Positions 1 through 32,000 of a DNA stretch of 32,000 bases are shown piece after piece. Origin of the DNA: Candidatus Pelagibacter ubique HTCC1062. GTDB lineage: Bacteria > Pseudomonadota > Alphaproteobacteria > Pelagibacterales > Pelagibacteraceae. Under the pieces are notes generated by a model, which saw only the letters and a program-made list of their open reading frames with translations, searched no databases and was not told the DNA's origin. Position 1 is the stretch's first letter; every line of letters starts with the position of its first letter. The position numbers and the translations under genes are program-made. Where the stretch lies: NCBI RefSeq assembly GCF_000012345.1, contig NC_007205.1, positions 30,001 through 62,000 on the forward strand. Direction: 5' to 3'.

Positions 1-991
1 TTTCAAAATGATGATGTATAGGTGCCATTCTAAAAATTCTTTTACCTGTAAGTTTGAATGAAAATACTTGGATTATAACTGATACAGCTTCTAGTACAAA
101 TAACCCTCCTGTTATTGCTAAAACAATCTCATGTTTAGTAATAATACCAATTGCCCCTAAAGATCCACCTAATGCTAATGAACCAGTGTCACCCATAAAT
201 ATTTTAGCAGGTGGAGCATTGAACCATAAAAATCCTAAACAAGCTCCTATAATTGATCCACAAAAAACTGAAACTTCCCCCATACCTTCAAGATAGGGAA
301 TATTTAAATATTCAGAAAATACAATATTGCCCGTTACGTAACTAATAAATGCAAAACATGCTGCAACTAATATCACTGGCACCGTTGCTAAGCCATCTAA
401 ACCATCTGTTAAATTAACTGCGTTGGAGGATCCAACAATTATAAAAATTGAAAATGGAATAAAAAACCATCCAAGATTAATAATTAAATTTTTAAAAAAA
501 GGAAAATATAAATTGGTAAGTTCAGTGTTTTGAGATAATTGAGTTAAACCATAAATTCCAACAATGGCTATTAAAATTTGAGAAATAATCTTAAATTTAA
601 ATGAAACGCCAGATGAATTTTTAAACTTAATTTTTTTATAATCATCATATGCACCTAATAGCCCAAACCCCGAAACAATAAATAACAAAAACCATATATG
701 GTAATTTGATAAATCACCCCAAAGTAATATTCCTGAAAAAAGTCCAAGTAAAATTAAAACACCTCCCATTGTTGGTGTTCCAATTTTCTTAACGATATGT
801 TCAGTAGGACCATCATCTCTTATTGGATTTAATATTTTTCTTGCTGAAAAAAATTTAATAAAAGGAGTGCCAATTAATAAAACTACAAACATTGATGTAA
901 ACATTGAAAGGCCCGTTCTAAATGTTAAATACTTAAATACATTTAGAAAACTATATTGATCAATTAATTGCGTAATAAGACTATAAAGCAT
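1..991 (-). CDS. mraY: Phospho-N-acetylmuramoyl-pentapeptide transferase MraY (3' end runs off the window start)
   Basis: Missing from the ORF track because it is open at the window edge. The reverse complement of 961-991 reads ATG CTT TAT AGT CTT ATT ACG CAA (MLYSLITQ). The reverse complement of 2-58 reads FKLTGKRIFRMAPIHHHFE in the same frame, which is the conserved MraY motif. My partial hand translation of this frame was hydrophobic with no stops (not checked over the full length). The ATG overlaps the murE-murF stop by 11 nt, and the gene sits at the canonical dcw position after murF. Confidence 0.93.
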   Translation of the reverse strand, partial: MLYSLITQLIDQYSFLNVFKYLTFRTGLSMFTSMFVVLLIGTPFIKFFSARKILNPIRDDGPTEHIVKKIGTPTMGGVLILLGLFSGILLWGDLSNYHIWFLLFIVSGFGLLGAYDDYKKIKFKNSSGVSFKFKIISQILIAIVGIYGLTQLSQNTELTNLYFPFFKNLIINLGWFFIPFSIFIIVGSSNAVNLTDGLDGLATVPVILVAACFAFISYVTGNIVFSEYLNIPYLEGMGEVSVFCGSIIGACLGFLWFNAPPAKIFMGDTGSLALGGSLGAIGIITKHEIVLAITGGLFVLEAVSVIIQVFSFKLTGKRIFRMAPIHHHFE

Positions 992-3827: not shown

Positions 3828-3834
3828 ATAAGTA

Positions 3835-5517: not shown

Positions 5518-5812
5518 TTTTGCTGATTAAGTCTTTTATTTCTAAAGTTTCATTATTTTTAAAGATTTCCTTAATATTCATAATTTCAATTTTGATTAAA
5601 TCTTTTTCAAAATATTGCGTTTGATACTGAACTAGTTTTTCAGGAGAGCTCAAATAGTTAAACTCAAGCAATACATCTTCAAGTTCCGATTTTAAAGGTC
5701 TTATATTTTCTTTAACTATAAAAATTTGATCTTCTATTTCTTTTGTAGAATTTTTAATAAGTGATGTAATTAATATTAATACTAAAATAACAGCTACCAC
5801 TAATTGTTTCAT
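5504..5812 (-). CDS. ftsL: Cell division protein FtsL-like (small bitopic membrane protein)
   Basis: 102 aa with an N-terminal TM helix ([16 protein letters not shown]) followed by a charged, coiled-coil-like region. It overlaps the rsmH stop by 4 nt and the ftsI start by 14 nt. The call rests on position and topology, not on sequence motifs. Confidence 0.6.
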
Positions 5813-6819
5813 AGTTTTTTTGACAAATTTTCAATGTCAATTAAATGTTTAAATTTATCCAAGATATCTGTTTCAAAATCAAAAAAATCTTCTTTTTTAA
5901 TTACATAACGTAACTTGGCTGATCTAGAAGGTGGATTTTCTCTAATTTCTTTATCACTTGGTACTATTGGTTTTTTTATAACAGATTTAAATAAATTTAA
6001 TTTTTCTTCTGTTTTTGGCATATGTCTTGAGATGCTTTTATTTTCAGATAAACTTTTAAAAAAGTATTTAACAATTTTATCTTCTAAAGAATGAAATGTT
6101 ACAACTGCAATAACTCCATCCTTTTTAACAACTTTAGCAGCATTAATTAATCCATAAATTAGTTCACTAATTTCTTTATTTACAAATATTCTTAATGCTT
6201 GGAAAATTTTAGTTGCACTATGTGTCTTATAATTTCTTTTTCTTTTCGAAGATTCTATAATCCTAACTAGCTCTTCTGTTGTGATCTCTCTTTTAGATCT
6301 GTCTTCAACAATATTGTGTGCTATTCTTTTACTGTCTGCTTCATCCCCAAAATATTTAAATATTTTGGTAAGTTCTTTTTCATCTAATTGATTAATTGCT
6401 TCTTTTGCTGAAAATTCATTTATACCCATTTTCATATTAAGTTCACCAATGCTATCGAATGAAAGACCTTTTTTTGGGTCTTTAATCTGGTTCAAGGAAT
6501 ACCCTAAATCAAAAATTACAGCTTTTATATTTTCATGTTTTAACTTTAGATTGTTTAATTGACTGAATTTTATATTTTTAAATAATAGCCTATCCTCAAA
6601 ACTATTTTGAAGTTCTTGAGCTTTTATAGAGCTCTCAGAATCTCTATCTAATGCAATTACTTTTGTTTCAGGAAAGTTTAATATTCTTTTTGTGTATCCG
6701 CCTTGACCAAACGTACAGTCAATAAATGTGCCACCATATTGAGGGGTAATAATGCTAATTATTTCACTTAGCAATACCGGATAATGATTTCTCACATCTG
6801 GTATTATGGTGGCTATCAT
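5809..6819 (-). CDS. rsmH: 16S rRNA (cytosine1402-N4)-methyltransferase RsmH (MraW)
   Basis: 336 aa. HYPVLLSEI and [10 protein letters not shown] (SAM-binding) near the N-terminus, FDLGYS, and [11 protein letters not shown] are classic MraW/RsmH signatures. Confidence 0.95.
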
Positions 6820-6837
6820 TTATTTTTTTGAAGACCA

Positions 6838-8325
6838 TTAATTCTTTTGTCTTCTTAAAAATGCTGGAATTTCTAGATCATCATCTTCTGAGGTATTTTC
6901 CGAAGTTTCAGTTGATAAAAATCCTTCTGTCTCTGAAGTTGCACTATCCGAACTAAATAGATCTGGCGCGTCTTCACCTTCTACACCAAAGTTTTCAAGT
7001 CCATTAGAAACATGCTCCTCCTCCATTGGGCTATTTTCTTCAGGCTTTGCAGTTGTAAGTGCCTCCTCTGAAAAAGATTGCTCATAATCATTTGATTGAT
7101 TGTTTTCAACAATACTTTCAACTTCTTGATTGCTAACAGTTTGCTCATTCATCATTTCTGATGATGTAGTATTTGTAACTGGTTCTGCAATTATTTCATT
7201 TTCTAACTTTAATGCATTTGCTCCATGAGAAATAGGGCTAGTCATTGTAGGTGAAAAATTAAACGATTGAGCAGAACTAGCACTGTTAAAATCTGAATAA
7301 CCAGGATTTCTATTTTGTATTCTGTGAACCATATTGATTACAGATTTACTTTCTGGTTGTTGTCCATCTAGTGCCGTTGCAACTATTGATACTCTAATTT
7401 TTCCATCAAGGTCGCCAGATGTAATAGCACCAATAATCACCTCTGCTTCAGGATCTACTTCAGCTCTTATTTTATTAACCACTTCATCAACCTCAAAAAG
7501 TTTAAGATCCTTACCACCGGTAATATTTACTAGTAATCCTTTCGCACCTTTTAACGTATAATCATCAATCAATGGGTTGCTAATTGCCATGTCTGCTGCT
7601 TTAGCTGCTCTACCTTCTCCTTCAGCTTCACCAGTTCCCATCATTGCTTTACCCATTGAAGCCATTACAGTTTCAACATCAGCAAAATCTAGATTAACTA
7701 TACCTGGTCTAACCATAAGATCGGTCACACTCTGTACACCTTGCATTAAAACATTATTTGAAAGATTAAAAGATTCTTCAAATGTAGTTTGTTCATTTGC
7801 AACCTTAAATAGGTTTTGATTTGGAATTACAATAATTGTATCCACATGTTTTCTTAATTCTTCTAGGCCTACCTGAGCTCTTCTCATTCTTGATGGCCCT
7901 TCATATAAAAAAGGAAGTGTTACAACACCTACTGTTAAAATATTTAATTCTTTAGCAGCTCTTGCAATAACGTGTGCAGCACCTGTGCCAGTTCCACCAC
8001 CCATACCAGCAGTTATAAAAACCATGTTTGCACCCTGAAGAGTATTTACAATTTCATTTAAAGATTCATCTGCAGCTGCTTGACCAATGTCATGTTTTGC
8101 TCCAGCACCTAAACCTTTTGTTAAACTTAGGCCAATTTGAATTCTTGCTTTAGCTTTACTTAACTTTAAATCTTGAGCATCTGTATTTACTGCTATGAAC
8201 TCTACTCCTTGAAGTCCATTATCAATCATTTCATTAAGTGCATTTCCACCTGCTCCGCCAACTCCCACTACTAATAATCTTGGTTGTAATTCTTTTATTT
8301 CTGGTGATTTAAAGTTAATTGTCAT
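6838..8325 (-). CDS. ftsZ: Cell division GTPase FtsZ
   Basis: 495 aa with [11 protein letters not shown] and the tubulin signature GGGTGTGAA. It also has NTDAQ, a long acidic/Ser-rich disordered linker, and the conserved C-terminal peptide [12 protein letters not shown]. Confidence 0.97.
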
Positions 8326-8327
8326 TT

Positions 8328-8795
8328 TTATTTCCCCTCATTGTTATTAAAATGTTTTTCCCATTTAAGACTTGCACGATTTAGATTTGCTTTTTTTCTT
8401 GCGTTGATCTTAAATTTTTCAAATGCTGCTGGTTCCCATATTTGGAATGTTTGACCTTGACCAACAAACAACATGCTATTTTTTATTTTTGCATGTTTTA
8501 ATAATTTTGTTGATAATGAAATTCTACCTTCACTATCAAATTGTAAATTCATACTCTCAGATAAAATTGATGTTGCAAAATAATCTCTTTTTTCTTCAAA
8601 TGGACTTAATGAATCTATACTTGCAGAAAGTTTTTCAATTCTATCTTGTGAGCAAGCTTCTATAGACTGATTATTAAATGAGGGATAACAGATAACACCA
8701 TTGTATCCTAAGTTAGAAAGGTGAGATCTAAAACTAGCAGGCACAGATACCCTTCCCTTTTTGTCTATTTTGTTCTCGTAAGTAGATAAAAACAT
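8328..8795 (-). CDS. mraZ: Transcriptional regulator MraZ
   Basis: 155 aa. It has two SpoVT/AbrB-like halves, each with the DxxGR motif (DKKGRVSVP and DSEGRISL). It is the first gene of the dcw cluster. Confidence 0.93.
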
Positions 8796-9049: not shown

Positions 9050-9410
9050 GTTTGCTAGACAAACTATAAGCCGGGTTCTGTCATTTAAACCTATCATTTC
9101 TCTAGGCTTAAGATCACTCTTAAGCTCATGCAACTAACCCTGATGACTAGCCAAAGACGGCTTTTAGTTTTGCAACAATGTCATCTCTACTTAGTCTTGC
9201 TCCCAGTGGGGTTTTCCAGCGTTCATTGTTACCAATAGAACCGGTGCGCTCTTACCACACCTTTTCACCCTTGCCATGTTATGGCGGTATATTTTCTGTG
9301 GCACTATCCCTAGGGTTTCCCCCGCCAGGTATTATCTGGCACTGTGTCTTTGCGGAGCCCGGACTTTCCTCTTTAATAAATTAAAGCGATAAGTCGTTCA
9401 TCTAGCAAAT
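9050..9410 (-). ncRNA. rnpB: RNase P RNA, bacterial type A
   Basis: The reverse complement contains the universally conserved blocks GAGGAAAGTCCGGGCTCC, GTGCCAGATAATACCTGGCGGGGGAAACCC, AAGGGTGAAAAGGTGTGGTAAGAGCGCACC and ACAGAACCCGGCTTAT. A P1 helix forms between TTGCTAGA (5' end, about 9409) and TCTAGCAA (3' end, about 9052). The ends are approximate to within about 5 nt. Confidence 0.9.
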
Positions 9411-11673: not shown

Positions 11674-11750
11674 TGGTGGGCCCGCCAGGACTCGAACCTG
11701 GGACCAATACATTATGAGTGTACTGCTCTAACCAACTGAGCTACAGGCCC
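11674..11750 (-). tRNA. tRNA with CAT anticodon (elongator Met, or Ile2 read via lysidine)
   Basis: The reverse complement is GGGCCTG TA GCTC AGTTGGTTA GAGC A GTACA CTCATAA TGTAT TGGTC CCAGG TTCGAGT CCTGG CGGGCCC A CCA. This is a perfect 77-nt cloverleaf with canonical GG in the D loop, TTCGA in the T loop and an encoded CCA. The acceptor pairs C4:G69 and C5:G68 resemble Ile2 rather than Met. Confidence 0.9.
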
Positions 11751-11816
11751 TAAAAATTAAGCTTTAATTATATTATAATGTAACCGATGTCTAGCATAGG
11801 TAAAAGATAATGAAAA

Positions 11817-11891
11817 TGGTGGGACTGGTTGGTTACGCTCCAACTACCCCTGCAATGTCAATGCAGTACTCTACTATTGAGCTACAGTCCC
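11817..11891 (-). tRNA. tRNA-Val (anticodon GAC) with non-canonical D and T loops
   Basis: The reverse complement is GGGACTG TA GCTC AATAGTA GAGT A CTGCA TTGACAT TGCAG GGGTA GTTGG AGCGTAA CCAAC CAGTCCC A CCA. It is 75 nt with 7/4/5/5-bp stems, all paired (one G:U), and an encoded CCA. The D loop lacks the GG dinucleotide, and the T loop is AGCGTAA instead of TTCRANN. It lies 8 nt downstream of the rpoD stop. Confidence 0.7.
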
Positions 11892-20649: not shown

Positions 20650-22881
20650 TTAAAAGATTTTCTTTAAATTAATCGTTGCTTCATCAAAAGTATTTGGTTT
20701 CAATACATCTTGATTGTTTAATTTAAAATCAATTTCAAAATCATTAATATTTTTACTTATCTTAAATTCAGATCCTAAATTTTCTGAGCCTGCTAATTTA
20801 AAAGCATAATTAGTTTTTCTGTTTGGTAAATATCCTATAGCTAAATGTATTTTATCAGTATGACCGGTGCCTAATGCTTGATTTCTCTCATAGATTAAAA
20901 AGATACTAAAACTATCTGGTAAAATTATATCTATACCTAATTCACCATTTAAATTGTGTAAAGCACCTGAGTTTAACTTGGTATCAAATTCACCACTTGT
21001 TGCATCAGAGACGTAAGAATATTTTATATTAGAAGAACGATTTAAGTTTGCTTTGTATTCTAATTTTCCATGCTTTCTAATTTTATATTTTTCATTTTTT
21101 AATTCATCAACTGCAGCAATTGAAAGTCTTGCATTTCTTGATCGAATGCCTTGCTTTTTAAATTTCATAGCAGTGTTACCACTTTCTTGATAACCATCTA
21201 ATAAAGTGTAACCAAGGTCTATTTGTCCAGAAGGGATTAGAATTAAATTATTTTTCTTAATCTCATCTTTTAATTTAATTGTTCCATATATTTGTCTACC
21301 TTTTCTATCAGCTGTTACACGTTCACCATCAAGCACTGATAAAATATCTGAATTAAGGACACCTACTCCAATAACTGTGTCTATAAATTTTGTATCATCT
21401 TCAATTGGGGATGAGGAATAATGGGTTAAATTATAAGTATTCGTATCTAAATTGCTTCCAGCTGAGCCAACATCAACATCATTTTTACCAAACCTAAAAG
21501 CAAGCCCCCTTATGCCATTATTTTTGGTAAATTTATCTGCTCCAACTGTAATTGCGTTAGTTTTAATCTTTTTAAATGAAGAAACATTTGTCTCTCCAAC
21601 TCTGCCAACTGCAATACTTCCTTCGCTCCAATAAAATACGTCTTGTTGTTTATCTTTTTTCTTTGTAGTAGCTGAGGTTTTTACAACTTTAGTAAGAGAG
21701 GCAAGCATTTGATTGGTAAAATTAAGATCTAAATTAAGATTAGTTAAGTTTTGATTATCTTTGTTTCTTCTAATCCACTTTAATCTATTTAAAGCAGTGT
21801 CCGTTGAGTGTTCTATAGTTCTTGTTGCAACTTCTATTTGTGCAATAGCTATTCCAGTTCTGACACCTGTTGTGATACTCGGACATTTTCCTTCAATAAT
21901 ATTAAAAGGACACACTAAATCAAATTCAAAAACTTCATCCTTTCCGTTTTCATCTTTGTCACTACCAATGTACATTTTAAGACCAACCGCACTAAATGCA
22001 ATTCCTCTTGGTTGAGTAATATCACTAGATATTGAAACTGTACCGTCTATTGTAAATGAAGAAGTGGAAAAAGCCACATCAAGGGAAATTTGAGTTACAT
22101 CTTGTGTACTACCATTGTGATCAACAGCCCAAAATCTTTTTCCATCTGGACTAAATCTTATTCCTTGAGGGTTTGATACTTCATCATTTAGTTCTATTCC
22201 TGCATCTGTAATAATTGATATGGTACTTAGATCGTATGCAGTTGAAAGTTGGTACTCTAATAATCTTGTGTCTTGACCCGTCGCTCCATGAAAAATTGCA
22301 AATAATTTTGTTCCATCATTATTAATCTCAATACCTTGAAGTCTGTTATTAGTTCCCTCAGTAATATCTCCAGCATTACTACCATCTTGTAGAGTACCAG
22401 TATCAAGGTCTGAAGTTTGATTTGCGAATGCACATGTTGAAACATCATAGGGGGAAGTTAAATCAAATCTAAATACTCTATCATCATTTGCAGTACCTTT
22501 AGCATTTCCCCTAGACACAAACAGCATCAATCCATCATTAGAGAATTCTAGATCAGTAATAGCACTAATAGGACCCGAAGTCGTGTCACCACTATTTAAT
22601 ATACATACCTCATCATCACTCGCATAAGTTTTTGTAGAGACATTGAATGGTGTGCTTAAATCATATTCATTTATATGTGCATAAACACTAGAAATTGCTG
22701 AAACTTTTCTTTGGGTCACTGTAAACATTTTTGTTCCATCAGAATTAAAATGGATGCCGTTTATAAAGTCACTCCTATCATTGACTGCTGCTGACTGTAT
22801 TTTGGTAACCATAGCTCCAAATGAATTTGAGATGGGAAGTATAAATAATAAAATTAAAATAAAGTTTTTTATAAATTTCAT
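20650..22881 (-). CDS. Autotransporter-like outer-membrane protein, paralog 1 (propeller-blade repeats plus C-terminal beta-barrel)
   Basis: 743 aa with signal peptide MKFIKNFILILLFILPISNSFGA. Five repeats of about 50-70 aa (aa about 38-333) have the core [FI].[FI].[NSP]DG.K[ML][FY] ... [EF][YF].L[ST][TS].[YF][DN].S (HFNSDGTKMF, FSNDGLMLF, INNDGTKLF, FSPDGKRFW, FSAVGLKMY). A Cys loop C324-x8-C333 and a helical linker (ALNRLKWIRRNKD) follow. From WSEGSIAVGRVGE onward there are about 325 aa of alternating hydrophobic pattern ending ...INLKKIF (C-terminal Phe). Confidence 0.8.
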   Translation of the reverse strand: MKFIKNFILILLFILPISNSFGAMVTKIQSAAVNDRSDFINGIHFNSDGTKMFTVTQRKVSAISSVYAHINEYDLSTPFNVSTKTYASDDEVCILNSGDTTSGPISAITDLEFSNDGLMLFVSRGNAKGTANDDRVFRFDLTSPYDVSTCAFANQTSDLDTGTLQDGSNAGDITEGTNNRLQGIEINNDGTKLFAIFHGATGQDTRLLEYQLSTAYDLSTISIITDAGIELNDEVSNPQGIRFSPDGKRFWAVDHNGSTQDVTQISLDVAFSTSSFTIDGTVSISSDITQPRGIAFSAVGLKMYIGSDKDENGKDEVFEFDLVCPFNIIEGKCPSITTGVRTGIAIAQIEVATRTIEHSTDTALNRLKWIRRNKDNQNLTNLNLDLNFTNQMLASLTKVVKTSATTKKKDKQQDVFYWSEGSIAVGRVGETNVSSFKKIKTNAITVGADKFTKNNGIRGLAFRFGKNDVDVGSAGSNLDTNTYNLTHYSSSPIEDDTKFIDTVIGVGVLNSDILSVLDGERVTADRKGRQIYGTIKLKDEIKKNNLILIPSGQIDLGYTLLDGYQESGNTAMKFKKQGIRSRNARLSIAAVDELKNEKYKIRKHGKLEYKANLNRSSNIKYSYVSDATSGEFDTKLNSGALHNLNGELGIDIILPDSFSIFLIYERNQALGTGHTDKIHLAIGYLPNRKTNYAFKLAGSENLGSEFKISKNINDFEIDFKLNNQDVLKPNTFDEATINLKKIF

Positions 22882-22885
22882 AAGA

Positions 22886-23026
22886 TTAAAATGTTGTTGA
22901 CAATTTAATACTCAGGTCTTTAAATTGTTTATTTACCACTTCAACTATTCCAGCTTGTGCTTGCATCAAAATAAAAAATGATGACACAAGTGAACCGACA
23001 GCTAATTTTCTTAAAAAAAATACCAT
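22886..23026 (-). CDS. Candidate 46-aa secreted mini-protein immediately upstream of paralog 1 (below the ORF-track size cutoff)
   Basis: Hand translation of the minus strand gives MVFFLRKLAVGSLVSSFFILMQAQA/GIVEVVNKQFKDLSIKLSTTF*. That is a positive n-region, a hydrophobic core and an AQA cleavage-type motif, leaving a 21-aa mature peptide ending in Phe. The stop lies 4 nt before the paralog-1 ATG. No Shine-Dalgarno is visible. It may be a relic or a chance ORF. Confidence 0.3.
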   Translation of the reverse strand: MVFFLRKLAVGSLVSSFFILMQAQAGIVEVVNKQFKDLSIKLSTTF

Positions 23027-23176
23027 AATGAAAAATACTATATAAAATTTAATTTAGCGGTTTTTCAGCTCTTTTAAGTGCTCAAAACGGGCAGAAATTC
23101 TAATATTGAGTGCGTTTTATCGAGGATAAAATAATCTTCATCAAAAATTCAAATATATAAATTTTAATAAATCAAG

Positions 23177-25348
23177 ATGCTTAATTTAATAAAAAAAAGT
23201 AAAAAATTAATTATAAAAGGTGCTCTTAAACTAAAAGTATTTTTAGTTTTATTTAGTTTATTTTTTTCATCACTAGCTTTAGCTGAACCTACATTTATTG
23301 CTAATTTTAATGTCCAAGACAAAGAAACTTCACCTACTGGGATAACATTTAATCCTGATGGTACCAAAATGTTTATTACAGGAATAAATATGCGAAAAAT
23401 ACTACAATATAATTTAACTACAGCTTTTGATGTTACTTCAGCAGCTTTTGAAAAGTCTGTGTTAATCCAAGTAGAACAGGATAAACCACAAGATGTAAAA
23501 TTTAATTCAGATGGAACTGTAATTTTTCTTTTAGGAACGGGAACTGGAGTAATAGATGGAGTGGATGCTGCTAGAAATGGGATTCATAGATGGTCTTTAA
23601 GTACACCATATGATATTGGATCGATCACTCCAGCAAATACCACTTTTACTGAAGTTGGTGGTGATAACCCAAGAGGATTAGCTTTTAATAATGATGGAAC
23701 AAAAATGTTTATTTTGGATAATACTGCTCAGCGGGTAGAAGAATACAATCTTTCAACACCATATAACCCTGATACTAAAGGTTCTGTAGCCAACACACTT
23801 GGTAATGCAAGGAGTGCTAGTCATCAGGGACTAGGTTTTAATAATGATGGATCAAAAATATTTATAGTAAAACAAGACAATAAAATTGATGAATATGCTT
23901 TATCTACTGCTTTCGATCTATCAAGCGCAACATTAACTGGTACAGTCTCACCGACATTTCCAGTTACAAATAAAAGGTTAAGTGGCTTTGCTTTCAATAG
24001 TTCTGGAACAAAAATGTATCACTTAGATTGGCATACACTTACTGATGCTGACAATGTAAATGAGTATAGCTTAAGCTGTCCTTTTGCAGTTGTTAGTTCA
24101 TCAACGTGTGGAGCCCCACAAAAAAATAAAGATGTAAGGGGTGTAGTTGATGCACAAATTAATACTGCTAAAAATTTTGCTAAAGATTCAAGTCAGTCTG
24201 CTTTAAAAAGATTATCTATTTTAAGAGCGAATAAATACTACAACGCAAGTGCACAAAATATAGAGTTAAACTTTCAAAATGAATTATTAAAGAAAGTATC
24301 CAATAATGTTTTAAGTTCCGCACAAGCTAAATTAAACCCACTTCAAAAATTAGATCAAATTTTACCTAATGATTGGGAGGTATGGTCCGAAGGTAGCATT
24401 AGTTTTGGAAAAATTGGTGAGAGCTCCTTAAGTTCTGCTCAAGATATTGATAGCCTTGGTATAACTGTGGGTGTTGATACAAAAATGGATGATGATAAAA
24501 TATTAGGAGTTGCTTTAAGAGTGGGTAGCACTGATGTTGATGTTGGAACCTTTGGTTCTAAAGTTGATACAAATGCATTAAGTTTATCTCTTTATGGAAT
24601 TAACAGTTTAGAAAACAGTAATTATTTAAAACACGTTTTTGGAGTTAGTTATTTAGATAGCAATATTGCAAGAAAATATGACGGAAATACCGACGCAAAT
24701 AAGGGTGAACGTGAGGGTAAACAGGTTTTTGGTTCACTTAATTTTGGAAAAGAATATGAAAATAGTGATTTAATTATTACTCCAACAGGTCGTATCGATG
24801 GAAGTTATACAGCACTTAATGGTTATACAGAAAGTGGCATTGCAGCACTTAGTTATAATGATCAAGACATCAGTTCATTAATGGCTTCTTTAGGAGTATT
24901 AATAGACCAAGATGTTGATCTAGAAAATTCAACTGTAAGATCTAGAATTAATCTTGAATACAGTAAAGAGTTTGCCTCAAGCTCTAAGGTGGTAACAAGC
25001 TACGTATCAAACAGTGAAAGTTTTGAATATCAAGCTGATAACAAAAATAGAGATATATACACAGCAGGACTTGGTTTAGATTTTAAGCATGACCAAGGGT
25101 TAATAATTAGTACTGATTACGAAAGACAGCAAATCAAGGGTCATGGTTATATTAATAAATTTACATTATCAGCAGGCTTTTTATATAGAAAAGAAACAGA
25201 GTTTGCACTTGGTCTTGATGAAGAAATGACTTCGAGCTTTAAAATTTCTAAAGCACTAGGTGTATTTGATTTAGAATTTGATTTAGAAAATAATTTTTCA
25301 AATCAAGAAAATCATAATGCTAACTTATCTATATTAAGTAAATTTTAA
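23177..25348 (+). CDS. Autotransporter-like outer-membrane protein, paralog 2
   Basis: 723 aa with an extended signal peptide ending FSLFFSSLALA/EP. The five repeats are FNPDGTKMFI...QYNLTTAFDVTS, FNSDGTVIFL...RWSLSTPYDIGS, FNNDGTKMFI...EYNLSTPYNPDT, FNNDGSKIFI...EYALSTAFDLSS and FNSSGTKMYH...EYSLSCPF. A Cys loop C301-x9-C311, a linker (ALKRLSILRANK) and a barrel from WEVWSEGSISFGKIGE follow, ending ...LSILSKF. Confidence 0.8.
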   Translation: MLNLIKKSKKLIIKGALKLKVFLVLFSLFFSSLALAEPTFIANFNVQDKETSPTGITFNPDGTKMFITGINMRKILQYNLTTAFDVTSAAFEKSVLIQVEQDKPQDVKFNSDGTVIFLLGTGTGVIDGVDAARNGIHRWSLSTPYDIGSITPANTTFTEVGGDNPRGLAFNNDGTKMFILDNTAQRVEEYNLSTPYNPDTKGSVANTLGNARSASHQGLGFNNDGSKIFIVKQDNKIDEYALSTAFDLSSATLTGTVSPTFPVTNKRLSGFAFNSSGTKMYHLDWHTLTDADNVNEYSLSCPFAVVSSSTCGAPQKNKDVRGVVDAQINTAKNFAKDSSQSALKRLSILRANKYYNASAQNIELNFQNELLKKVSNNVLSSAQAKLNPLQKLDQILPNDWEVWSEGSISFGKIGESSLSSAQDIDSLGITVGVDTKMDDDKILGVALRVGSTDVDVGTFGSKVDTNALSLSLYGINSLENSNYLKHVFGVSYLDSNIARKYDGNTDANKGEREGKQVFGSLNFGKEYENSDLIITPTGRIDGSYTALNGYTESGIAALSYNDQDISSLMASLGVLIDQDVDLENSTVRSRINLEYSKEFASSSKVVTSYVSNSESFEYQADNKNRDIYTAGLGLDFKHDQGLIISTDYERQQIKGHGYINKFTLSAGFLYRKETEFALGLDEEMTSSFKISKALGVFDLEFDLENNFSNQENHNANLSILSKF

Positions 25349-25692
25349 TGAGTAAAATAAAAATAGTTTTCTATTTAGCTTTAGCTTTTATTTTTTATAA
25401 AGGCTTTGTTGCATTTCAAAATTTTGAAATTGGTGTTGATGACAGGGTTGCATCTATAGAAGAAAAAGCAGATTTTGAAAAAGAAGGTGAAGTAATTGGT
25501 CTCATGATGTACTTGGGCGACCCACCAGAATTATATGAACATTTATTAACTAAGAATAAATCTAGGTGTTTAGAAATGAGACAAACAGCAGAAGAGAGCT
25601 CCTCTGCATACTATGAATGCGCAAGAGTGAACGCCGTCCTTAAAGGTGGAAAAATTGTAAGTATTATTAATGAAATTGAAGTTATAGAATAA
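25348..25692 (+). CDS. Hypothetical 114-aa membrane-anchored/secreted protein, translationally coupled to paralog 2
   Basis: Its ATG shares the A of the paralog-2 TAA (TAATG at 25346-25350). It has an N-terminal hydrophobic helix (IVFYLALAFIFYKGFVAF), then a charged soluble domain with two Cys (C74, C91). I recognise no family motif. Confidence 0.6.
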   Translation: MSKIKIVFYLALAFIFYKGFVAFQNFEIGVDDRVASIEEKADFEKEGEVIGLMMYLGDPPELYEHLLTKNKSRCLEMRQTAEESSSAYYECARVNAVLKGGKIVSIINEIEVIE

Positions 25693-25700
25693 TTATTAAA

Positions 25701-27875
25701 TTAAAATTTATTTGAAATTTCTATATTTGCACCATAGTCAGGTACATCACTTATAAAATTATAATTAGAGCTCATCTTTAAATCAAATCCATTTATGTTA
25801 TTTGTATATGAGAAACTAGTATTTTCAAAATTATTCAGATCAAATACAAATTTCATTTCATCAATTGGCACATACCCTACAGATAAATAAATTTCATTAC
25901 TATGACCTTTGCCGTTAGATTGAAATCTCTCAAAATTTCCAACGAATGACCATCCTGTTATGGAAGTGACATCAAAACCATAACCAATTCTAAGATTATG
26001 CTTTGATTTATTTTCTACATTATAATTGTAAACTGTACTTTGACTATTAAGATAATAAAATTCTGCATCTGATGATGGGCTTAGATCTGCAATATATTCT
26101 AATCGACCATGGTGATTAATAATTTCATCTTCTTCTTTATCTGTATCTGTTTTATCTAAAAGGACACCAAGTGTTATTAATGCTGATTTAATATTTTGCT
26201 CTTTATAAAGTAGTGCATCAGCTAAACTATCTCCAACAACAGTTCTTTCTCTAAATGCTTTTAGTTTTGTGTACCCTAAATCTAATTTAATACCTGGATT
26301 GAGATTTAAATCTTCATCAACTATTCTTTTTCCAAAATTAAATGATCCATATATCTGTTGACCTTCTCGGTTTCCCTCTAAAATGTTACCATAAATAACC
26401 CTTTTTTGATCTATATCTAGTAAACTAACTCCAATTAATGCATCTGTAAAAACGTGATCATCTCTAAGTTTGGTATCATATAGGGCAAAACTATATGCAT
26501 CTGTCTCTAATTTTGTTCCACTACTTCCAATATCAACATTATCGTTTGCATACTGAAAGACGTATCCATGCATAGCATCTCTGTCATCATCTTTAATTTT
26601 ATCTGCACCAACTGAGATACCATAGCTGTGAAAATCTCTTGATGATGAATTTATAGATTTATTTTTACCTAAGCTAATTCTACCTTCACTCCATTTAAAC
26701 CAATCCTCACTATCATAACTTCTATCATTTTCTTTTTTAGAATTTTTAAGAGCACTAACTAATTTTGATATTTTTTCATTTGTAAAATCAATTTCTGCAT
26801 TAAGATTTGATAAATTATCTTTATTTTTATGTCTTCTTAACCACTCAATTCGATGAAAGATTGGAAGAGTATTGTTTTTAATTATACGTTTTGATAATTC
26901 GACATTTGCTTCAATGATTGCTTTAACATCATTATTATTTGAGGCATCAATACAAGTAATGGTACCAGCGCAAGCTAAACTATATTCAAAAATTTTATTT
27001 GTTGAAGCAGTAGAGCCAGCATCATTAGTAACAAACAACTTCGTAAAATTTGCTGTGAAAATAAAGCCTCTCATATGACTAACTCTGCTACCTAGCTCGT
27101 ATTCAGTAGAAGTAGAAGAAATAGTTGTGATATCCCAAGGTGTACTTAGAGTGTATTTATGTATATTATTATTACCATCACCTGCGACATACAAAATTGA
27201 CCCATCCGAATGCAATTGAATATTTCTCATTCCTCCGTCAGAAGAGCTGGCTAGACTGGCTGATAAAGAACCCACTGAAACTCCAGATCGAAGATCAAAA
27301 GGAGTTGTTAATATATATTCTCTTATTTTATCTTGAGTTTTTCCACCCACAAACATACGTGTTCCGTCAGGTTTAAATGTTAAAGTTCTTACTTGATCTT
27401 CATTGCCAACACCCGTTATGTCTACTTCAAATATTTTCTCACAATCCAATGTAGAAGTATCCCAAGCAGTTGTTAATTTAAATTGATAGACTGCAACTCC
27501 AGGATTTCCAGAGTGATCTTTGTTGGTAGTTATAAACATTCTTGTTCCATCAGGTTTAAATTCAATAGCGTGTGGTAACTGCATATCTGTACTACATGTT
27601 AATTTTGTTCCAGCTCCATCAACAAATGTTCTTGTTGCTGTACTTATATCGAATGGAGTGCTGAGCGAATATTGAACTATGTAGGCATCATGATTTGCAA
27701 CACGATTTGTTATATACATTATGCTTCCGTCTGGTTTAAAGTTTATTCCTCTAACACCAGGTACATCTGTGGATAGTATTTTTTCTTTTTGAAATTCTAA
27801 AAAAGCAAAAGCATTAGAATAAAATAATGCTAAAAAGCTAAATACAAAAAATGATGTTTTGAGAATTTTTTTCAC
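25701..27875 (-). CDS. Autotransporter-like outer-membrane protein, paralog 3
   Basis: 724 aa with a GTG start and signal peptide MKKILKTSFFVFSFLALFYSNAFA. The repeats are FKPDGSIMYI...QYSLSTPFDIST, FKPDGTRMFI...QFKLTTAWDTST, FKPDGTRMFV...EYILTTPFDLRS, LHSDGSILYV...KYTLSTPWDITT and FTANFTKLFV...EYSLAC. A Cys loop C302-x5-C308, a linker (IFHRIEWLRRHKNKDN) and a barrel from WFKWSEGRISLGK follow, ending ...IEISNKF. Confidence 0.8.
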   Translation of the reverse strand: MKKILKTSFFVFSFLALFYSNAFAFLEFQKEKILSTDVPGVRGINFKPDGSIMYITNRVANHDAYIVQYSLSTPFDISTATRTFVDGAGTKLTCSTDMQLPHAIEFKPDGTRMFITTNKDHSGNPGVAVYQFKLTTAWDTSTLDCEKIFEVDITGVGNEDQVRTLTFKPDGTRMFVGGKTQDKIREYILTTPFDLRSGVSVGSLSASLASSSDGGMRNIQLHSDGSILYVAGDGNNNIHKYTLSTPWDITTISSTSTEYELGSRVSHMRGFIFTANFTKLFVTNDAGSTASTNKIFEYSLACAGTITCIDASNNNDVKAIIEANVELSKRIIKNNTLPIFHRIEWLRRHKNKDNLSNLNAEIDFTNEKISKLVSALKNSKKENDRSYDSEDWFKWSEGRISLGKNKSINSSSRDFHSYGISVGADKIKDDDRDAMHGYVFQYANDNVDIGSSGTKLETDAYSFALYDTKLRDDHVFTDALIGVSLLDIDQKRVIYGNILEGNREGQQIYGSFNFGKRIVDEDLNLNPGIKLDLGYTKLKAFRERTVVGDSLADALLYKEQNIKSALITLGVLLDKTDTDKEEDEIINHHGRLEYIADLSPSSDAEFYYLNSQSTVYNYNVENKSKHNLRIGYGFDVTSITGWSFVGNFERFQSNGKGHSNEIYLSVGYVPIDEMKFVFDLNNFENTSFSYTNNINGFDLKMSSNYNFISDVPDYGANIEISNKF

Positions 27876-27978
27876 CTTAGCAGATTAATGAAATTAGGAT
27901 AAATACAACCGTGTTGGTGCCCAAATCGAATTAAATTTGTTAGCTATAATATCATTTTAGAGTTTTCTCACATGTCGT

Positions 27979-28005
27979 GTTGACAACTGATCAAAATGGG
28001 TGGAA
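27979..28005 (+). promoter_or_regulatory. 27-nt conserved promoter/operator-like element, copy A (upstream of the regulator gene)
   Basis: The sequence is GTTGACAACTGATCAAAATGGGTGGAA. It starts with a consensus -35 hexamer TTGACA. It is 26/27 identical to the inverted copy at 29873-29899. It ends 30 nt before the in-frame ATG at 28036. Confidence 0.5.
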
Positions 28006-29004
28006 AAAACAACTTGTAAGACTTTAATAGAAATCATGATTAAAATTACAAATAAAACTAATGAAGAACAAATCTTCAAAATTATTAATGAAAATTTTAG
28101 TCAGTTAGCACCCTCATATTATTCGTTGGTAACTCATTGGTTTATTAATGCTTATAAAAATTTTAAAGGTATCGATAAGTATATAATTTTAATTTATCTG
28201 ATTAATAAAGACTTTATTCACTATAGAAAAAATGGACTAATGGTTGATTATGATACGTTTTATAAGGATAAAACACTAGAAATTCCAAATATTAATATTT
28301 CAGATATTGCAAGAGACCTTCTTATACCTAAGGAAAATGTAAGAAGAAAAATATCTGAATTAGAGAAAAAAGGTATTATTAAAAGAGCAGGAAAAAAGAT
28401 CTTTGTTGAAAGACCTGGCTTTATACAAACAAAAGCTAATATAACTTTAAAAGATTTTAGTAGTTTGGTTTCTACGTTTAGTGAAATTTTAAAAGATAAA
28501 AAAATAATTAAAGAACCTTTAAACACAGATCAAATTTCAAATTTAATTAAAGAAAATTTTTCTTTTTGTTGGTATCAATTTTACAAATTTTTATTCATAT
28601 TTTCTAACCGTTGGAAAACAGATACTAAAACTCAGGATTTAGAAACAATATGTGTGGGATTAATTGTAATGATTAATACTGTTCAAAATAGGGGTTTCAA
28701 AGACAAGAATTTAGATAGACAAAAATATTTTAAAGCAGTTCAAAAATCTAATCACATTGGTATTAACGCATTTTCTATAGCTGATATTACGGGAATTCCA
28801 AGGGCTACCGTTGTAAGAAAATTACAATTTTTAATCGAAAACAAATTTTTAAATATTAGTGAAAAAAAACTTTATAACTTTGCTATGGGGACACAAACTA
28901 AACAATTTAAAGTGCTCACTAAATTACAAGATAAAAATATGAAAGCTTTAGGTAAATTTTTGTATAAGGTTTTTAATCAGATTAAAATAATAAACACTAA
29001 TTAG
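28000..29004 (+). CDS. Putative transcriptional regulator with two tandem winged-helix-turn-helix domains (internal duplication)
   Basis: 334 aa from the GTG at 28000, or 322 aa from the ATG at 28036, which I think more likely because the conserved element overlaps the GTG. HTH1 is NINISDIARDLLIPKENVRRKISELEKKGIIKRAGKKIFV (nt about 28291-28407). HTH2 is GINAFSIADITGIPRATVVRKLQFLIENKFLNISEKKLYNF (nt about 28765-28881). The two align with each other at about 12/39 identity plus conservative changes, each preceded by a hydrophobic helical region. Confidence 0.65.
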   Translation: MEKTTCKTLIEIMIKITNKTNEEQIFKIINENFSQLAPSYYSLVTHWFINAYKNFKGIDKYIILIYLINKDFIHYRKNGLMVDYDTFYKDKTLEIPNINISDIARDLLIPKENVRRKISELEKKGIIKRAGKKIFVERPGFIQTKANITLKDFSSLVSTFSEILKDKKIIKEPLNTDQISNLIKENFSFCWYQFYKFLFIFSNRWKTDTKTQDLETICVGLIVMINTVQNRGFKDKNLDRQKYFKAVQKSNHIGINAFSIADITGIPRATVVRKLQFLIENKFLNISEKKLYNFAMGTQTKQFKVLTKLQDKNMKALGKFLYKVFNQIKIINTN

Positions 29005-29845
29005 ATTTTCTTAAAATAAAAACAAAGATTACGGAGGTTGCCATCATTACTAATGCATAGGCAGCTGTGGGTACCATATAAATAATATTATCAAATAATT
29101 GAGTAGCAACAAAAACTGCTAGGGTTCCATTTTGCAAACCACATTCTAAAGAGATAGCTCTTTGTTGAGGTGTCCCTGATGCAAAAAATTTAGCAACATA
29201 AAATCCTATCACCATCATAGTTACATTTAATATTAAGGCTATTAAACCTGCTCGAGTTAAAAAGCTTACAATTTTATCCCACTCTTCAATATATATTGCA
29301 GCAAAAACAAGTAAAAATAATGCAATAGAAAATCTTTGAATAAACTTCAAATTTTTTATGACAAGGTCACCAGTAAAATGCCTGATAGTCATTCCAATTA
29401 TTACTGGAACCGTAACTACAAAAAACATTTTTAAAGAAATGGATACCATTGTTATTTCTCTCTCAACATAGGTGATATCAAACAGATTAATTGAATTGAT
29501 CACAATGAATGGCACTGTTACTATACTTAATAAGCTCATAACTGCTGTCAGTGATATTGATAGCGCTACATCACCCTCTGCAAATTTTGTAAGAACATTG
29601 GAGGTTACACCCCCTGGAGCAGCTGCAATTATCATTACTCCTAAGGCCATTTCAATCGGCACACCTAAGGTAATGATAAGTAGATAGGCAACGATTGGTA
29701 AAACAATTAACTGACAAATAAAACCAATAAAAAAATCTTTAGGGTTTTTTGCAACTCTTAAAAAGTCATCTACTGTTAAAGAAGCTCCTAGTCCAAGCAT
29801 AATAATAGCTAGAGCGATTGGAGCGATGTTGGTTACTATTTCCAT
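28997..29845 (-). CDS. Bile acid:Na+ symporter (BASS/SBF) family transporter
   Basis: 282 aa and polytopic. It has LGLGASLTVDDF, AAAPGGVTSNVLTKFAEGDVALSISLTAVMSLLSIVTVPF and ECGLQNGTLA, the characteristic SBF-family crossover-helix motifs. Its 3' end overlaps the regulator 3' end by 8 nt. Confidence 0.88.
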   Translation of the reverse strand: MEIVTNIAPIALAIIMLGLGASLTVDDFLRVAKNPKDFFIGFICQLIVLPIVAYLLIITLGVPIEMALGVMIIAAAPGGVTSNVLTKFAEGDVALSISLTAVMSLLSIVTVPFIVINSINLFDITYVEREITMVSISLKMFFVVTVPVIIGMTIRHFTGDLVIKNLKFIQRFSIALFLLVFAAIYIEEWDKIVSFLTRAGLIALILNVTMMVIGFYVAKFFASGTPQQRAISLECGLQNGTLAVFVATQLFDNIIYMVPTAAYALVMMATSVIFVFILRKSN

Positions 29846-29872
29846 TAATTTAATTTAAAATTTCATGCATAG

Positions 29873-29910
29873 TTCCACCCATTTTGATCATTTGTCAACC
29901 CATTTTGGTC
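29873..29910 (-). promoter_or_regulatory. 27-nt conserved element, copy B, plus an upstream direct half-repeat (upstream of the BASS transporter gene)
   Basis: The minus strand reads GACCAAAATGGGTTGA-caaat-GATCAAAATGGGTGGA. The two 16-mers (29910-29895 and 29889-29874) are 14/16 identical and 21 bp apart. The 27-mer GTTGACAAATGATCAAAATGGGTGGAA (29899-29873) matches copy A at 26/27. It ends 27 nt before the transporter ATG (29845). Confidence 0.5.
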
Positions 29911-30068
29911 GGTTGTAAACAGGACAAGATAAATCCTAAAAAAAAACTACAAATATTAAAGTTAATTCGATTAAAGAACTAATAAAGATTTATTCTAAAT
30001 ACACTAAGATGCTTAAGAAATTATAAGATTTTTATCTTTTAAAAGATGGTGTTTAAAAAAAGCAAAAA

Positions 30069-32000
30069 CTATCCAATTGATATTAAAGTAAGATCATCAC
30101 TTAATTTTCCAGATTTAGAGCTGTCAATTATTTTTTTACTAATATCTGATAAGTGTTTCTTCGAATCTTTTGTGTAGTTATCTTCAATTATTTCAATTGA
30201 ACCTTCAATACCTATTTCTTGTCCTTCAGCATTTAAACTTTCAGACAATCCATCTGTAAAAACATAAAATTTGTTTCCATTTAAAACTTGTTTATTAATT
30301 TTATAAATTGATTTATTTTTTTGGTGAATAACCCCCATCGGCGGCGCTTCACTATCAAAATTTTGGTATTTACCATTTTTGTCTCTAATGATAGCTGGTT
30401 GATGTCCCGCATTTACCCATGAAACTTCTTTGGTAATTAAATCATATTTTCCAAGAACACATGTCACAAACATGCCTGATGTTTTGGTGAGAAATAAATC
30501 GTTATTCATATGAAGCATCATTTCATCTGGATCTACCTGATCTCTTGACATGACTTCAAATAAAGTAGAGGCTTTTGCCATCACCATTCCAGCATGAACT
30601 CCCTTACCTGCTACATCTGCAATTATAAAATTAATACTATCATTATGGGGATAAAAACTAAAAAAATCACCTGAAACTTCTCTCGAAGCAATATTAATTC
30701 CTTGCACAGGATAATTTTGTAAATCTCTTTTTGGTAAAAAATTTTCTTGAACTTTTACAGCCAAATTTATTTCTTTGGAAATTCTACTTCGCCACTTTTC
30801 TTTTTCATTTTCGCTAACCTCAAGCTTGTTCATCAATTTATTATAATAAAGTCCTATTACCCCTCCTGCAGTGAAAGGATCTTGTGGGCCTCTAACAGAG
30901 AGATCTCCACTTTCAGACTGTTTTTCAAGGATTGAAATTAAATCATGTTCTACTGAAACTGCATTATGTTCAGCAATATTTAATCCTAATTCCTCTTGTA
31001 AAGGAGTTACTCTTAATGGATAAAAATAATTTAAAATTTTTAAAATAATATAAGATCCAAAAAATGCGAAAGCACCAATTGCTAATATTCCTATAACCTG
31101 GACTTCAATTTGCTCTAACCTTGTAAGTCCTGTTCCTAATTTTTCTAAATCACTGAACAAACCAACTGAAATAGTTCCCCATACACCTGCTCCTAAATGA
31201 ACTGGCACTGCACCTACGACATCATCTATCTCATATTTGTTTAACAGTTCATTTATAAAAATTGCTACGATTGCACCAATAATACCAACAAAAATTGCCG
31301 TAACTGATGTCATTGAATTACAACCAGCTGTTATAGCAACCAATCCTGCAAGAGGACCTAATATTACATAAAATGGATCTGGTTTTTTAAATAATAAAAA
31401 TGAAATACCTAGTCCAGTTAACAACCCAAAAGCAGCAGAAAGAAATGTATTTATCAATATTAATGGCACTGTTTCATCCATTGCTCCATTACTTCCGCCA
31501 TTAAAACCAAACCAACCAAACCATAAAATTAAGGTTCCTAAAACGGCTAACGGAAAACTAGAGCCAGTAAATTTACCTTTATTAGACTCAGAATATTTAC
31601 CAATTCTTGGCCCTAAAATTAATACAGCAGCAAGTGCAATCCATCCTCCAACAGAATGAACAATAGTGCTACCAGCAAAATCAACAAAACCAAGTTCTGT
31701 TAACCATCCAGTATTTTTAATTTCTCCCGTAACAGCCGATAACTGCATTACAGTATCATTCATATTATTTAGATAACTGGATGACCAAGCCCAATGACCA
31801 ACAATTGGATAAATTATGCCAGTTGCAATTATCGTTATTATTAAATATCCATTAAATTTCATTCTTTCAGCCACAGCTCCAGAAACTATTGTTGCAGCAG
31901 TTGCAACAAACATGGCTTGGAACACAAAATATGTCATGTAATCAGCTTTTTCGGTTTTAAAGAAAAAAAGATCTGTTCCAAAAAAACCATTATAACTTGT
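30069..32000 (-). CDS. amt: Ammonium transporter (Amt/MEP) fused to a C-terminal SpoIIE/RsbU-type PP2C serine phosphatase domain (5' end runs off the window)
   Basis: The reading frame stays open upstream of the track ATG (31937) to the window end (TSYNGFFGTDLFFFKTEKADY-MTYF...), so the N-terminus is outside the window. Amt motifs are AATIVSGAVAERMKF, DFAGSTIVHSVGGW, WFGWFGFNGGS, GAVPVHLGAGVWGT and EELGLNIAEH (Amt part is nt about 30965-32000). After a linker of about 60 aa come the PP2C/SpoIIE motifs SGDFFSF, ADVAGKGVHAGMVMA, NAGHQP, FTDGLSE and SDDLTLISI (nt 30069 to about 30785). Confidence 0.9.
   Translation of the reverse strand, partial: TSYNGFFGTDLFFFKTEKADYMTYFVFQAMFVATAATIVSGAVAERMKFNGYLIITIIATGIIYPIVGHWAWSSSYLNNMNDTVMQLSAVTGEIKNTGWLTELGFVDFAGSTIVHSVGGWIALAAVLILGPRIGKYSESNKGKFTGSSFPLAVLGTLILWFGWFGFNGGSNGAMDETVPLILINTFLSAAFGLLTGLGISFLLFKKPDPFYVILGPLAGLVAITAGCNSMTSVTAIFVGIIGAIVAIFINELLNKYEIDDVVGAVPVHLGAGVWGTISVGLFSDLEKLGTGLTRLEQIEVQVIGILAIGAFAFFGSYIILKILNYFYPLRVTPLQEELGLNIAEHNAVSVEHDLISILEKQSESGDLSVRGPQDPFTAGGVIGLYYNKLMNKLEVSENEKEKWRSRISKEINLAVKVQENFLPKRDLQNYPVQGINIASREVSGDFFSFYPHNDSINFIIADVAGKGVHAGMVMAKASTLFEVMSRDQVDPDEMMLHMNNDLFLTKTSGMFVTCVLGKYDLITKEVSWVNAGHQPAIIRDKNGKYQNFDSEAPPMGVIHQKNKSIYKINKQVLNGNKFYVFTDGLSESLNAEGQEIGIEGSIEIIEDNYTKDSKKHLSDISKKIIDSSKSGKLSDDLTLISIG

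Follow-up and report, generated by a model that had tools for sequence, protein, structure and literature searches.

Membrane proteins of the Amt family can act as ammonium receptors. Two of them, Ks-Amt5 and Sd-Amt1, bind NH4+ but do not translocate it, and they modulate the domain fused to them (PMC5764959, PMC11152129); Pflüger et al. define ammonium receptors by the N1/N2 signature QX6EX15NX2D[F/T]X54-60TX2[S/T] (PMC11152129). In SAR11 bacteria, a protein of gMED genomes named Amt-GI5, 716 amino acids (aa) long and composed of an Amt domain, a HAMP-like linker and a PPM phosphatase (IPR001932), was grouped with SAR11_0049 and SAR11_0050 of strain HTCC1062 and proposed to be an ammonium sensor, with no cognate partner or other PPM domain in the gMED genomes and with the fusion seemingly exclusive to SAR11 in the marine dataset used (PMC11796062, 2025). 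The fusion and its reading as a sensor are already published and are not a new observation. Here we describe a gene of this family at the end of a 32,000-nucleotide (nt) stretch of Candidatus Pelagibacter ubique HTCC1062 (contig NC_007205.1, positions 30,001 to 62,000), the whole of which we call the window, together with the genes that adjoin it in related genomes. Our reading, which we consider probable from sequence comparison, is that its product serves as the ammonium-gated input phosphatase of a partner-switching module, that is, as an ammonium receptor with a protein phosphatase as output.

Domains of the Amt-PP2C fusion protein

The reading frame of the Amt-PP2C gene runs uninterrupted on the minus strand from nt 32000 to a TAG stop at 30069-30071 (643 codons), and its N-terminal ~73 codons lie beyond nt 32000, where the window edge cuts the open reading frame (ORF). 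The full-length product has 716 aa both in the homolog P0001 (98% identical), whose residue numbers are used below, and in contig L098 (99.56% nucleotide identity). Ammonium_transp (PF00909, E 1.1e-93, aa 3-347) and SpoIIE (PF07228, E 1.6e-35, aa 454-642) match the same ORF, both far over their Pfam gathering scores, and NCBIfam agrees with Pfam on the two domains. The original prediction, made from the window sequence alone, had claimed just such an Amt-SpoIIE fusion, and the motifs it named (here reading EELGLNIAEH, SGDFF, ADVAGKG, NAGHQP, TDGLSE and SDDLT) are all found where it placed them. It had also raised a frameshift as a possible refutation; the fusion is genuine, and not an artefact of frameshift or assembly, because more than 100 homologs of ~715 aa hold both domains in a single ORF. 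Indeed, the best 120 homologs, 114 of which reach 700 aa or more, range from 645 to 716 aa, each with both domains within one ORF. The features of the gene, from its 5′ to its 3′ side after the first line, are:

30069-32000, minus strand: 3′ 1932 nt of the Amt-PP2C gene, 643 codons plus stop, open to the window edge
30960-32000, minus strand: Amt-like membrane domain, putatively of ammonium-receptor type (P0001 residues 74-420), from PF00909, sequence and fold matches
31881-31892, minus strand: TIVS with the N1/N2 residues T110 and S113, aligned to T104/S107 of Sd-Amt1
31671-31685, minus strand: VDFAG with D180, just upstream of VHSVGG
31644-31661, minus strand: VHSVGG with the first twin-His residue H188, aligned to H169 of Sd-Amt1 (numbering of PMC11152129)
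31491-31517, minus strand: GWFGFNGGS with the second Phe-gate residue F239 and the vestibule Ser S243, by motif position
31185-31205, minus strand: PVHLGAG with the second twin-His residue H341, aligned to H323 of Sd-Amt1
30966-30995, minus strand: EELGLNIAEH, the Amt C-terminal motif, by motif search
30744-30965, minus strand: helical HAMP-like linker (P0001 residues ~419-492), a short helix, a loop and a long helix into the PP2C domain
30072-30743, minus strand: SpoIIE/RsbU-type PP2C (PPM) domain (P0001 residues 493-716), from PF07228
30660-30674, minus strand: SGDFF with the putative metal-binding Asp D518, aligned to SGD of the SpoIIE chains 5MQH/3T91
30600-30620, minus strand: ADVAGKG with the putative metal-binding Asp D535, aligned to ISDGMGNG of SpoIIE
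30396-30413, minus strand: NAGHQP, by motif search
30240-30257, minus strand: TDGLSE with the putative metal-binding Asp D656, aligned to SDG of SpoIIE
30087-30101, minus strand: SDDLT with the putative metal-binding Asp pair D708/D709, aligned to EDDMT of SpoIIE

The PF00909 match spans profile positions 63-396 of 399 and is shortened only by the window edge, coverage being complete in the homolog P0121 and in the paralog of contig L010. In the AlphaFold model of P0001 (mean predicted local distance difference test score, pLDDT, 90.2), the stretch from residue 6 to residue 399 contains 11 transmembrane helices, for the most part at pLDDT over 90. Both sequence and fold place the domain next to the described receptors rather than the transporters. 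A sequence search of the PDB gave Sd-Amt1 at E 1e-117 (residues 10-481 aligned) and Ks-Amt5 at E 4e-84, whereas the transporters Af-Amt1 (1e-42) and E. coli AmtB (~1e-29) score lower. Foldseek ranked Sd-Amt1 top (TM-score 0.94, 45% identity) and Ks-Amt5 second (40% identity); the search was run with the whole model and its best 50 matches are Amt/Rh structures only, so it speaks for the Amt part.

The residues that would line the ammonium-binding site are also in place. Alignment to Sd-Amt1 finds all seven N1/N2 residues (Q29, E36, N52, D55, F56, T110 and S113) as well as F32, with T110 and S113 read inside the window and Q29, E36, N52, D55 and F56, which lie outside it, read from P0001. Alignment shows the N1/N2 residues conserved throughout the 114 full-length close homologs; in 65 diverse relatives (alignment A3) they show little or no variation, T110 and S113 being nearly invariant there. 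The original prediction had asked whether the pore residues are intact across the full-length protein, and they are, with the N-terminal part read from P0001: the twin His H188/H341 and the Phe gate F104/F239 are present, and F104, F239, W145 and S243 (Phe gate, vestibule Trp and Ser) are conserved. H188 is invariant in alignments A2, A3 and A4, and H341, G238, F239 and N240 in A2 and A3. F239 and S243 presumably correspond to F215 and S219 of E. coli AmtB. The exit-funnel residue was dropped as a test of transport, Asn-269 of Sd-Amt1 being unconserved even in Ks-Amt5. Together, these comparisons support an Amt domain of the predicted ammonium-receptor type, closest to Sd-Amt1 and Ks-Amt5.

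The protein had been called a candidate transceptor. "Receptor" is the better supported word, since neither characterised relative translocates the ammonium that it binds (PMC5764959, PMC11152129). A true transceptor, which retains ammonium transport at a physiologically useful rate and whose signal follows flux instead of the filling of a dead-end site, seems unlikely to us, though it deserves serious consideration. Every canonical pore feature is in place, from the vestibule Trp and Ser and the Phe pair to the twin His and D180, the Asn found in the exit funnel of Sd-Amt1 is unconserved here, and the cluster carrying the N1/N2 signature includes proven transporters, such as plant AMT1, which have been suggested to be bifunctional (PMC11152129). 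However, neither of the two nearest characterised relatives translocates NH4+, uptake in SAR11 is served by two other Amt genes, which belong to the core genome (PMC11796062), and the protein levels of SAR11_0049/0050 are the same in nitrogen-replete and nitrogen-limited cells (PMC3870248). These unchanged levels fit a sensor rather than an induced uptake system.

The receptor-type domain is followed by a SpoIIE/RsbU-type PP2C domain, which PF07228 matches with 123 bits (cut-off 25) over profile positions 3-189 of 192 and for which phmmer finds the structures of RssB, SpoIIE and Rv1364c. The AlphaFold model shows a PP2C fold, a beta-sandwich with helices at 541-559 and 564-577. D518, D535, D656, G657 and D708/D709 are invariant in 11 Amt-PP2C proteins from SAR11 and non-SAR11 lineages at 38-54% identity. 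From SpoIIE structures, we take D518, D535, D656 and D708/D709 to be the metal ligands. The phosphatase domain thus appears intact, with a complete predicted active site, and the loss of metal-binding Asp residues envisaged as a sign of a degenerate domain is not what we find.

Between the two domains, the model places linker helices at 423-437 and 451-492 (pLDDT 74-92) ahead of the first PP2C strand at 505, so that the linker, put at about 60 aa in the original prediction, is nearer 75-85 aa. The alignment to Sd-Amt1 continues through the linker to residue 481, and the HAMP-like shape of two helices plus connector suggested here rests on the model and on this homology. Q434, T450, G453, Y459 and N460 are invariant in A2, an alignment of 11 Amt-PP2C proteins across lineages, and in the larger A3 alignment Y459 and N460 are still invariant and Q434 and G453 nearly so.

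Among the 1.8 billion representative proteins searched, this Amt subtype occurs in fusion with many kinds of output domain. Fifty sampled closest relatives of the subtype carry HisKA (30), SpoIIE (5), GGDEF (3), cyclase (3), EAL (2) and MCP (1) domains, and the PP2C output occurs in 11 of the 150 top representatives. The architecture survey that had been called for shows Amt-SpoIIE in SAR11 and, outside it, in SAR324, Leptospiraceae and further metagenome-assembled genomes (MAGs). Some of these proteins are longer through additional PAS or GAF domains, a receiver domain or an RsbW-like HATPase_c_2 domain at the C-terminus, and Amt-(GAF)-PAS-PP2C-HATPase_c_2 fusions exist. A separate genome search with three SAR11 sequences as query, which informs on the SAR11 form only and is silent on non-SAR11 taxa, found relatives encoded in at least 171 genome stretches (one genome per GTDB species); every one of the best 80 loci belongs to Pelagibacteraceae or Pelagibacterales, and the best genome match is Ca. 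Pelagibacter sp. Uisw_116.

Candidate partner-switching genes beside the fusion gene

The original prediction had found no STAS or RsbW-like partner in the window, and this holds for the 21 of 22 window ORFs of at least 100 aa that were scanned with Pfam, smaller ORFs being outside the scan and STAS genes elsewhere coding for 94-120 aa. It had also held that a genome with no possible partner-switching substrates would speak against its proposal, and such genes lie just past the window edge in a near-identical contig. This contig, L098, matches window positions 27001-32000 in the same orientation with 99.56% identity (window coordinate = L098 coordinate + 25713) and runs past the edge, where it carries in this order an Amt-PP2C paralog, two small ORFs, two prepilin genes, a divergent operon of two STAS genes and an RsbW-like kinase gene, and pilC. 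The operon, whose kinase gene codes for 145 aa, sits in a type IV pilus cluster at 4.5-5.5 kb from the window end. Pfam matches the STAS proteins at E 2e-18 and 5e-14 and the kinase to HATPase_c_2 at E 9e-20, and in NCBIfam both STAS proteins exceed the cut-off for anti-sigma factor antagonists and the best match of the kinase is RsbW. The larger features beyond the edge are:

L098 6610-8847, L006 3-1763 and L010 6531-8768: tandem Amt-PP2C paralog, 745 aa, just past window nt 32000
L094 350-8080 and L098 9686-13027: type IV pilus cluster around the STAS/RsbW-like operon

The tandem paralog is 49% identical, has an extra N-terminal helix of ~30 aa and keeps the N1/N2 residues and catalytic Asp residues intact; the gene and this paralog correspond to the SAR11_0049/0050 pair. 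The pilus set is complete (pilM/N, the pilQ secretin, pilB with an MshEN domain, and pilC), and the STAS/RsbW-like operon is placed between pilC and the two prepilin genes, with pilB, pilQ and pilM/N following farther along.

This linkage is conserved. Among 73 Pelagibacteraceae loci, taken from one genome per species and with at least 3 kb of upstream sequence, 63 have the STAS/kinase module, with the STAS genes ending 1151-1801 nt from the start of the first Amt-PP2C gene. The YMDSSG motif is kept in 78 of 78 STAS copies, and the N-box and GGLG in 63 of 63 kinases. The tandem paralog is present at 19 of the 63 module loci and a CHASE2-PP2C gene at 18. Furthermore, unrelated Amt-PP2C loci show the linkage in two of five cases, with STAS within 10 kb in a third. 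In the non-SAR11 locus L113, rsbW-like, STAS, permease and Amt-PP2C genes are co-directional; in L114, also non-SAR11, STAS-STAS stands ahead of an Amt-PP2C-HATPase_c_2 fusion; and in SAR324 two STAS genes lie within 10 kb of Amt-PP2C.

No sigma-B or sigma-F type sigma factor was seen near the module, and no glnK/PII gene among the window ORFs and the neighbour tables of L001-L006. In the literature searched, nothing relevant was found that ties SAR11 or Amt proteins to STAS, RsbU, anti-sigma factors or pili; a mention of RsbU in a comammox Nitrospira preprint proved unrelated. The partner-switching context of Amt-PP2C is absent from that literature, in which the fusion itself is published and the mechanism is not.

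Two further sets of genes were observed around the module. A CHASE2-transmembrane-PP2C protein of 457-573 aa is encoded ~3.5 kb downstream of Amt-PP2C in 18 Pelagibacteraceae loci (for example L043 11003-15717; also L048, L053, L063, L066 and L073), where genes for an outer-membrane/TPR protein and a FecR-domain protein precede it and the tandem paralog occurs in 0 of the 18. These loci contradict the published statement, made for gMED genomes, that there is no other PPM domain. Between the pilin genes and the first Amt-PP2C gene, two small secreted proteins are encoded (L098 8861-9190 and 9323-9613), one of 109 aa with Cys-x-x-Cys, which by eye looks heavy-metal-associated-like, and one of 96 aa that is lipoprotein-like; copies are also present in L016, L043 and L073.

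The linked genes bear on the possibility that the phosphatase acts on Amt itself, its paralog or the core Amt proteins by C-terminal dephosphorylation, with no downstream signal, as in plant AMT1 and fungal Mep2. Phosphorylation of Amt/Mep C-termini is established in eukaryotes, where a PP2C activates AMT1 (PMC9516733), Mep2 structures are among the sequence and fold matches, certain loci carry Amt-PP2C with no STAS nearby, and a plain Amt gene lies ~3.3 kb off in L051, L052 and L055. Nevertheless, we consider such self-regulation improbable: STAS and RsbW-like kinase genes are linked in most of the species-representative loci and in unrelated lineages, STAS proteins are the characteristic targets of SpoIIE-family PP2Cs (PMC11418112), and a kinase for the Amt tail is not known in SAR11. 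That the fusion is an artefact of frameshift or assembly join, or a dead phosphatase retained as scaffold, has its sole weak point in the N-terminus beyond the window and is already effectively refuted by the continuous ORF, more than 100 independent homologs of 710-716 aa with both domains, the at least 171 genome matches confirmed as relatives of the query, the invariance of the catalytic Asp residues at the identities given above, and the detection of the SAR11_0049/0050 proteins by proteomics in HTCC1062 (PMC3870248).

Proposed ammonium-responsive circuit

In the partner-switching reading, periplasmic NH4+ would enter the Amt-like pore, pass the Phe gate and the twin His, and bind in the lateral pocket formed by the N1/N2 residues Q29, E36, N52, D55, F56, T110 and S113, by homology with the described receptors. 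Occupancy would presumably alter the packing of the C-terminal HAMP-like helices, and the long linker helix running into the SpoIIE/RsbU-type PP2C domain would switch the phosphatase activity on or off. The conserved gene linkage suggests that the phosphatase dephosphorylates one or both of the STAS proteins encoded nearby, which the adjoining RsbW-like GHKL kinase would phosphorylate on Ser of YMDSSG. A second input phosphatase would be supplied by the tandem Amt-PP2C paralog or, in other strains, by CHASE2-PP2C, and the module as a whole would be sited within the type IV pilus gene cluster. The original prediction had likewise proposed that ammonium occupancy leads to Ser/Thr dephosphorylation of a phospho-STAS protein in a lineage with minimal nitrogen regulation. 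The receptor-type Amt domain, the seemingly intact PP2C domain and the linked STAS/RsbW-like genes support that proposal, and its view of the lineage agrees with the lack of PII, GlnD and NtrBC in SAR11 (PMC3870248).

Several points weigh against this circuit. The literal N1/N2 pattern is unmatched in P0001, where the spacer from DF to T is 53 residues rather than the published 54-60, and the site is read by alignment because the literal pattern fails on spacer length. In the alignment to PDB sequences, the exit-funnel Asn-269 of Sd-Amt1 is Leu here and Thr in Ks-Amt5, so that a loss of transport is unreadable from sequence. The Pfam HAMP profile (PF00672) has no match on the linker even at E up to 10, which is why we name the linker HAMP-like only. 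No STAS gene was found within 8-10 kb at 10 of the 73 SAR11 loci, at P0050/gMED-type loci and at 2 of the 5 non-SAR11 loci. SAR11 bacteria have very few sigma factors, which makes a classical anti-sigma output doubtful. Furthermore, Amt proteins assemble into trimers, whereas dimers are the activated state of RsbU-type PP2Cs. The same symmetry problem has been discussed for Sd-Amt1 (PMC11152129).

As to output, the setting among pilus genes is suggestive only. We tentatively entertain the possibility of a sigma-B-independent partner switch that is fed by Amt-like receptor phosphatases sensing external ammonium, controls pilus production/DNA uptake or a wider nitrogen response, and has alternative inputs, the Amt-PP2C paralog or CHASE2-PP2C, swapped between strains. 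Such a switch would be the pathway, long sought, by which the most abundant bacteria of the ocean sense nitrogen independently of PII.

SAR11 dominates the surface ocean, where nitrogen often limits production, and how it senses nitrogen without PII, GlnD and NtrBC has been an open question since 2013 (PMC3870248). The linked STAS and RsbW-like pair turns an orphan "sensor" into a defined three-component circuit, and the position of the genes suggests a possible link between ammonium and type IV pili. If the proposed circuit is true, protein dephosphorylation would be a third type of output for the ammonium-receptor class, for which histidine-kinase and diguanylate-cyclase outputs are so far the only ones characterised.

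Neighbouring genes and comparison with known systems

The window has a G+C content of ~30%. After the Amt-PP2C gene, it contains genes for an SBF transporter, a double-HTH regulator and three autotransporters, and carBA. Rfam at the gathering threshold (window and L006) finds RNase P RNA and two tRNAs only, and no riboswitch near the Amt-PP2C gene. The SBF gene (28997-29845, minus strand) is preceded by an intergenic region (29874-29911) in which the direct repeat CAAAATGGGT occurs twice around a TTGACA-like hexamer. The CAAAATGGGT repeat is kept between the window and L006, the remaining spacer having diverged, and it is probably a promoter or operator of the SBF transporter gene. The ORF at 28000-29004 (plus strand) codes for a protein of 334 aa in which two weak winged-helix/HTH matches are the only domains recognised; it shares 8 nt with the 3′ end of the SBF gene and is conserved next to Amt-PP2C in L006 and L010. 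Three paralogous autotransporters of ~725-745 aa, with beta-propeller-like passengers (weak lactonase, SGL and phytase-like matches), occupy 20650-27875, a region that differs in the related genome L010. At 981-8795 (minus strand), a division/cell-wall cluster has the unusual order mraZ, an ftsZ-like gene (495 aa, Tubulin and FtsZ_C), rsmH, a small ftsL-like ORF and ftsI, and ends in a single ORF of 948 aa in which the set of Mur ligase domains occurs twice, apparently a fusion of murE and murF. The genes for RNase P RNA (282 bits) and two tRNAs, at 9051-9405 and 11677-11891 (minus strand), are neighbours of rpoD, dnaG and mlaA/mlaC.

The closest described protein is Amt-GI5, with which the window gene product forms one protein family, P0001 having 716 aa and being 98% identical to the window protein. 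The locus is syntenic with that of HTCC1062, carA being SAR11_0040 and the tandem amt pair SAR11_0049/0050. Our findings differ from the Amt-GI5 account in that most Pelagibacteraceae species have candidate partner genes at a distance of 1.2-1.8 kb, that CHASE2-PP2C is present in 18 loci, and that the architecture also occurs in SAR324, Leptospiraceae and other MAGs.

Among proteins of known structure, Sd-Amt1 of Shewanella denitrificans (PDB 8QJ3/8QJ4; PMC11152129) is the best match in sequence and fold and shares the N1/N2 residues, the equivalents of its F25/E29 (F32/E36) and the twin His. It differs in its output, a GGDEF diguanylate cyclase rather than a PP2C phosphatase, in its Asn-269, which is Leu here, and in the DF-to-T spacing, which is one residue shorter here. 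Ks-Amt5 of Kuenenia stuttgartiensis (PDB 6EU6; PMC5764959), the second-best match, is likewise an NH4+-binding receptor that modulates a fused cytoplasmic enzyme, although its output is a histidine kinase and, according to its authors, it has no HAMP module.

The predicted output side resembles RsbU/RsbP-RsbV-RsbW and SpoIIE-SpoIIAA-SpoIIAB of Bacillus subtilis in its order of sensor, linker and PP2C, its DSSG-type STAS proteins and its small GHKL kinase, known here from genes, and in both a single STAS/kinase core seems to be fed by several input phosphatases. Here, however, the input would be a membrane ammonium receptor, and the genes lie within a type IV pilus cluster. Finally, the proposed role, relating ammonium availability at the membrane to intracellular regulation, is that of AmtB-GlnK (PII), with the difference that the coupling here would be covalent and act through Ser/Thr dephosphorylation, in a lineage that has no PII (PMC3870248).

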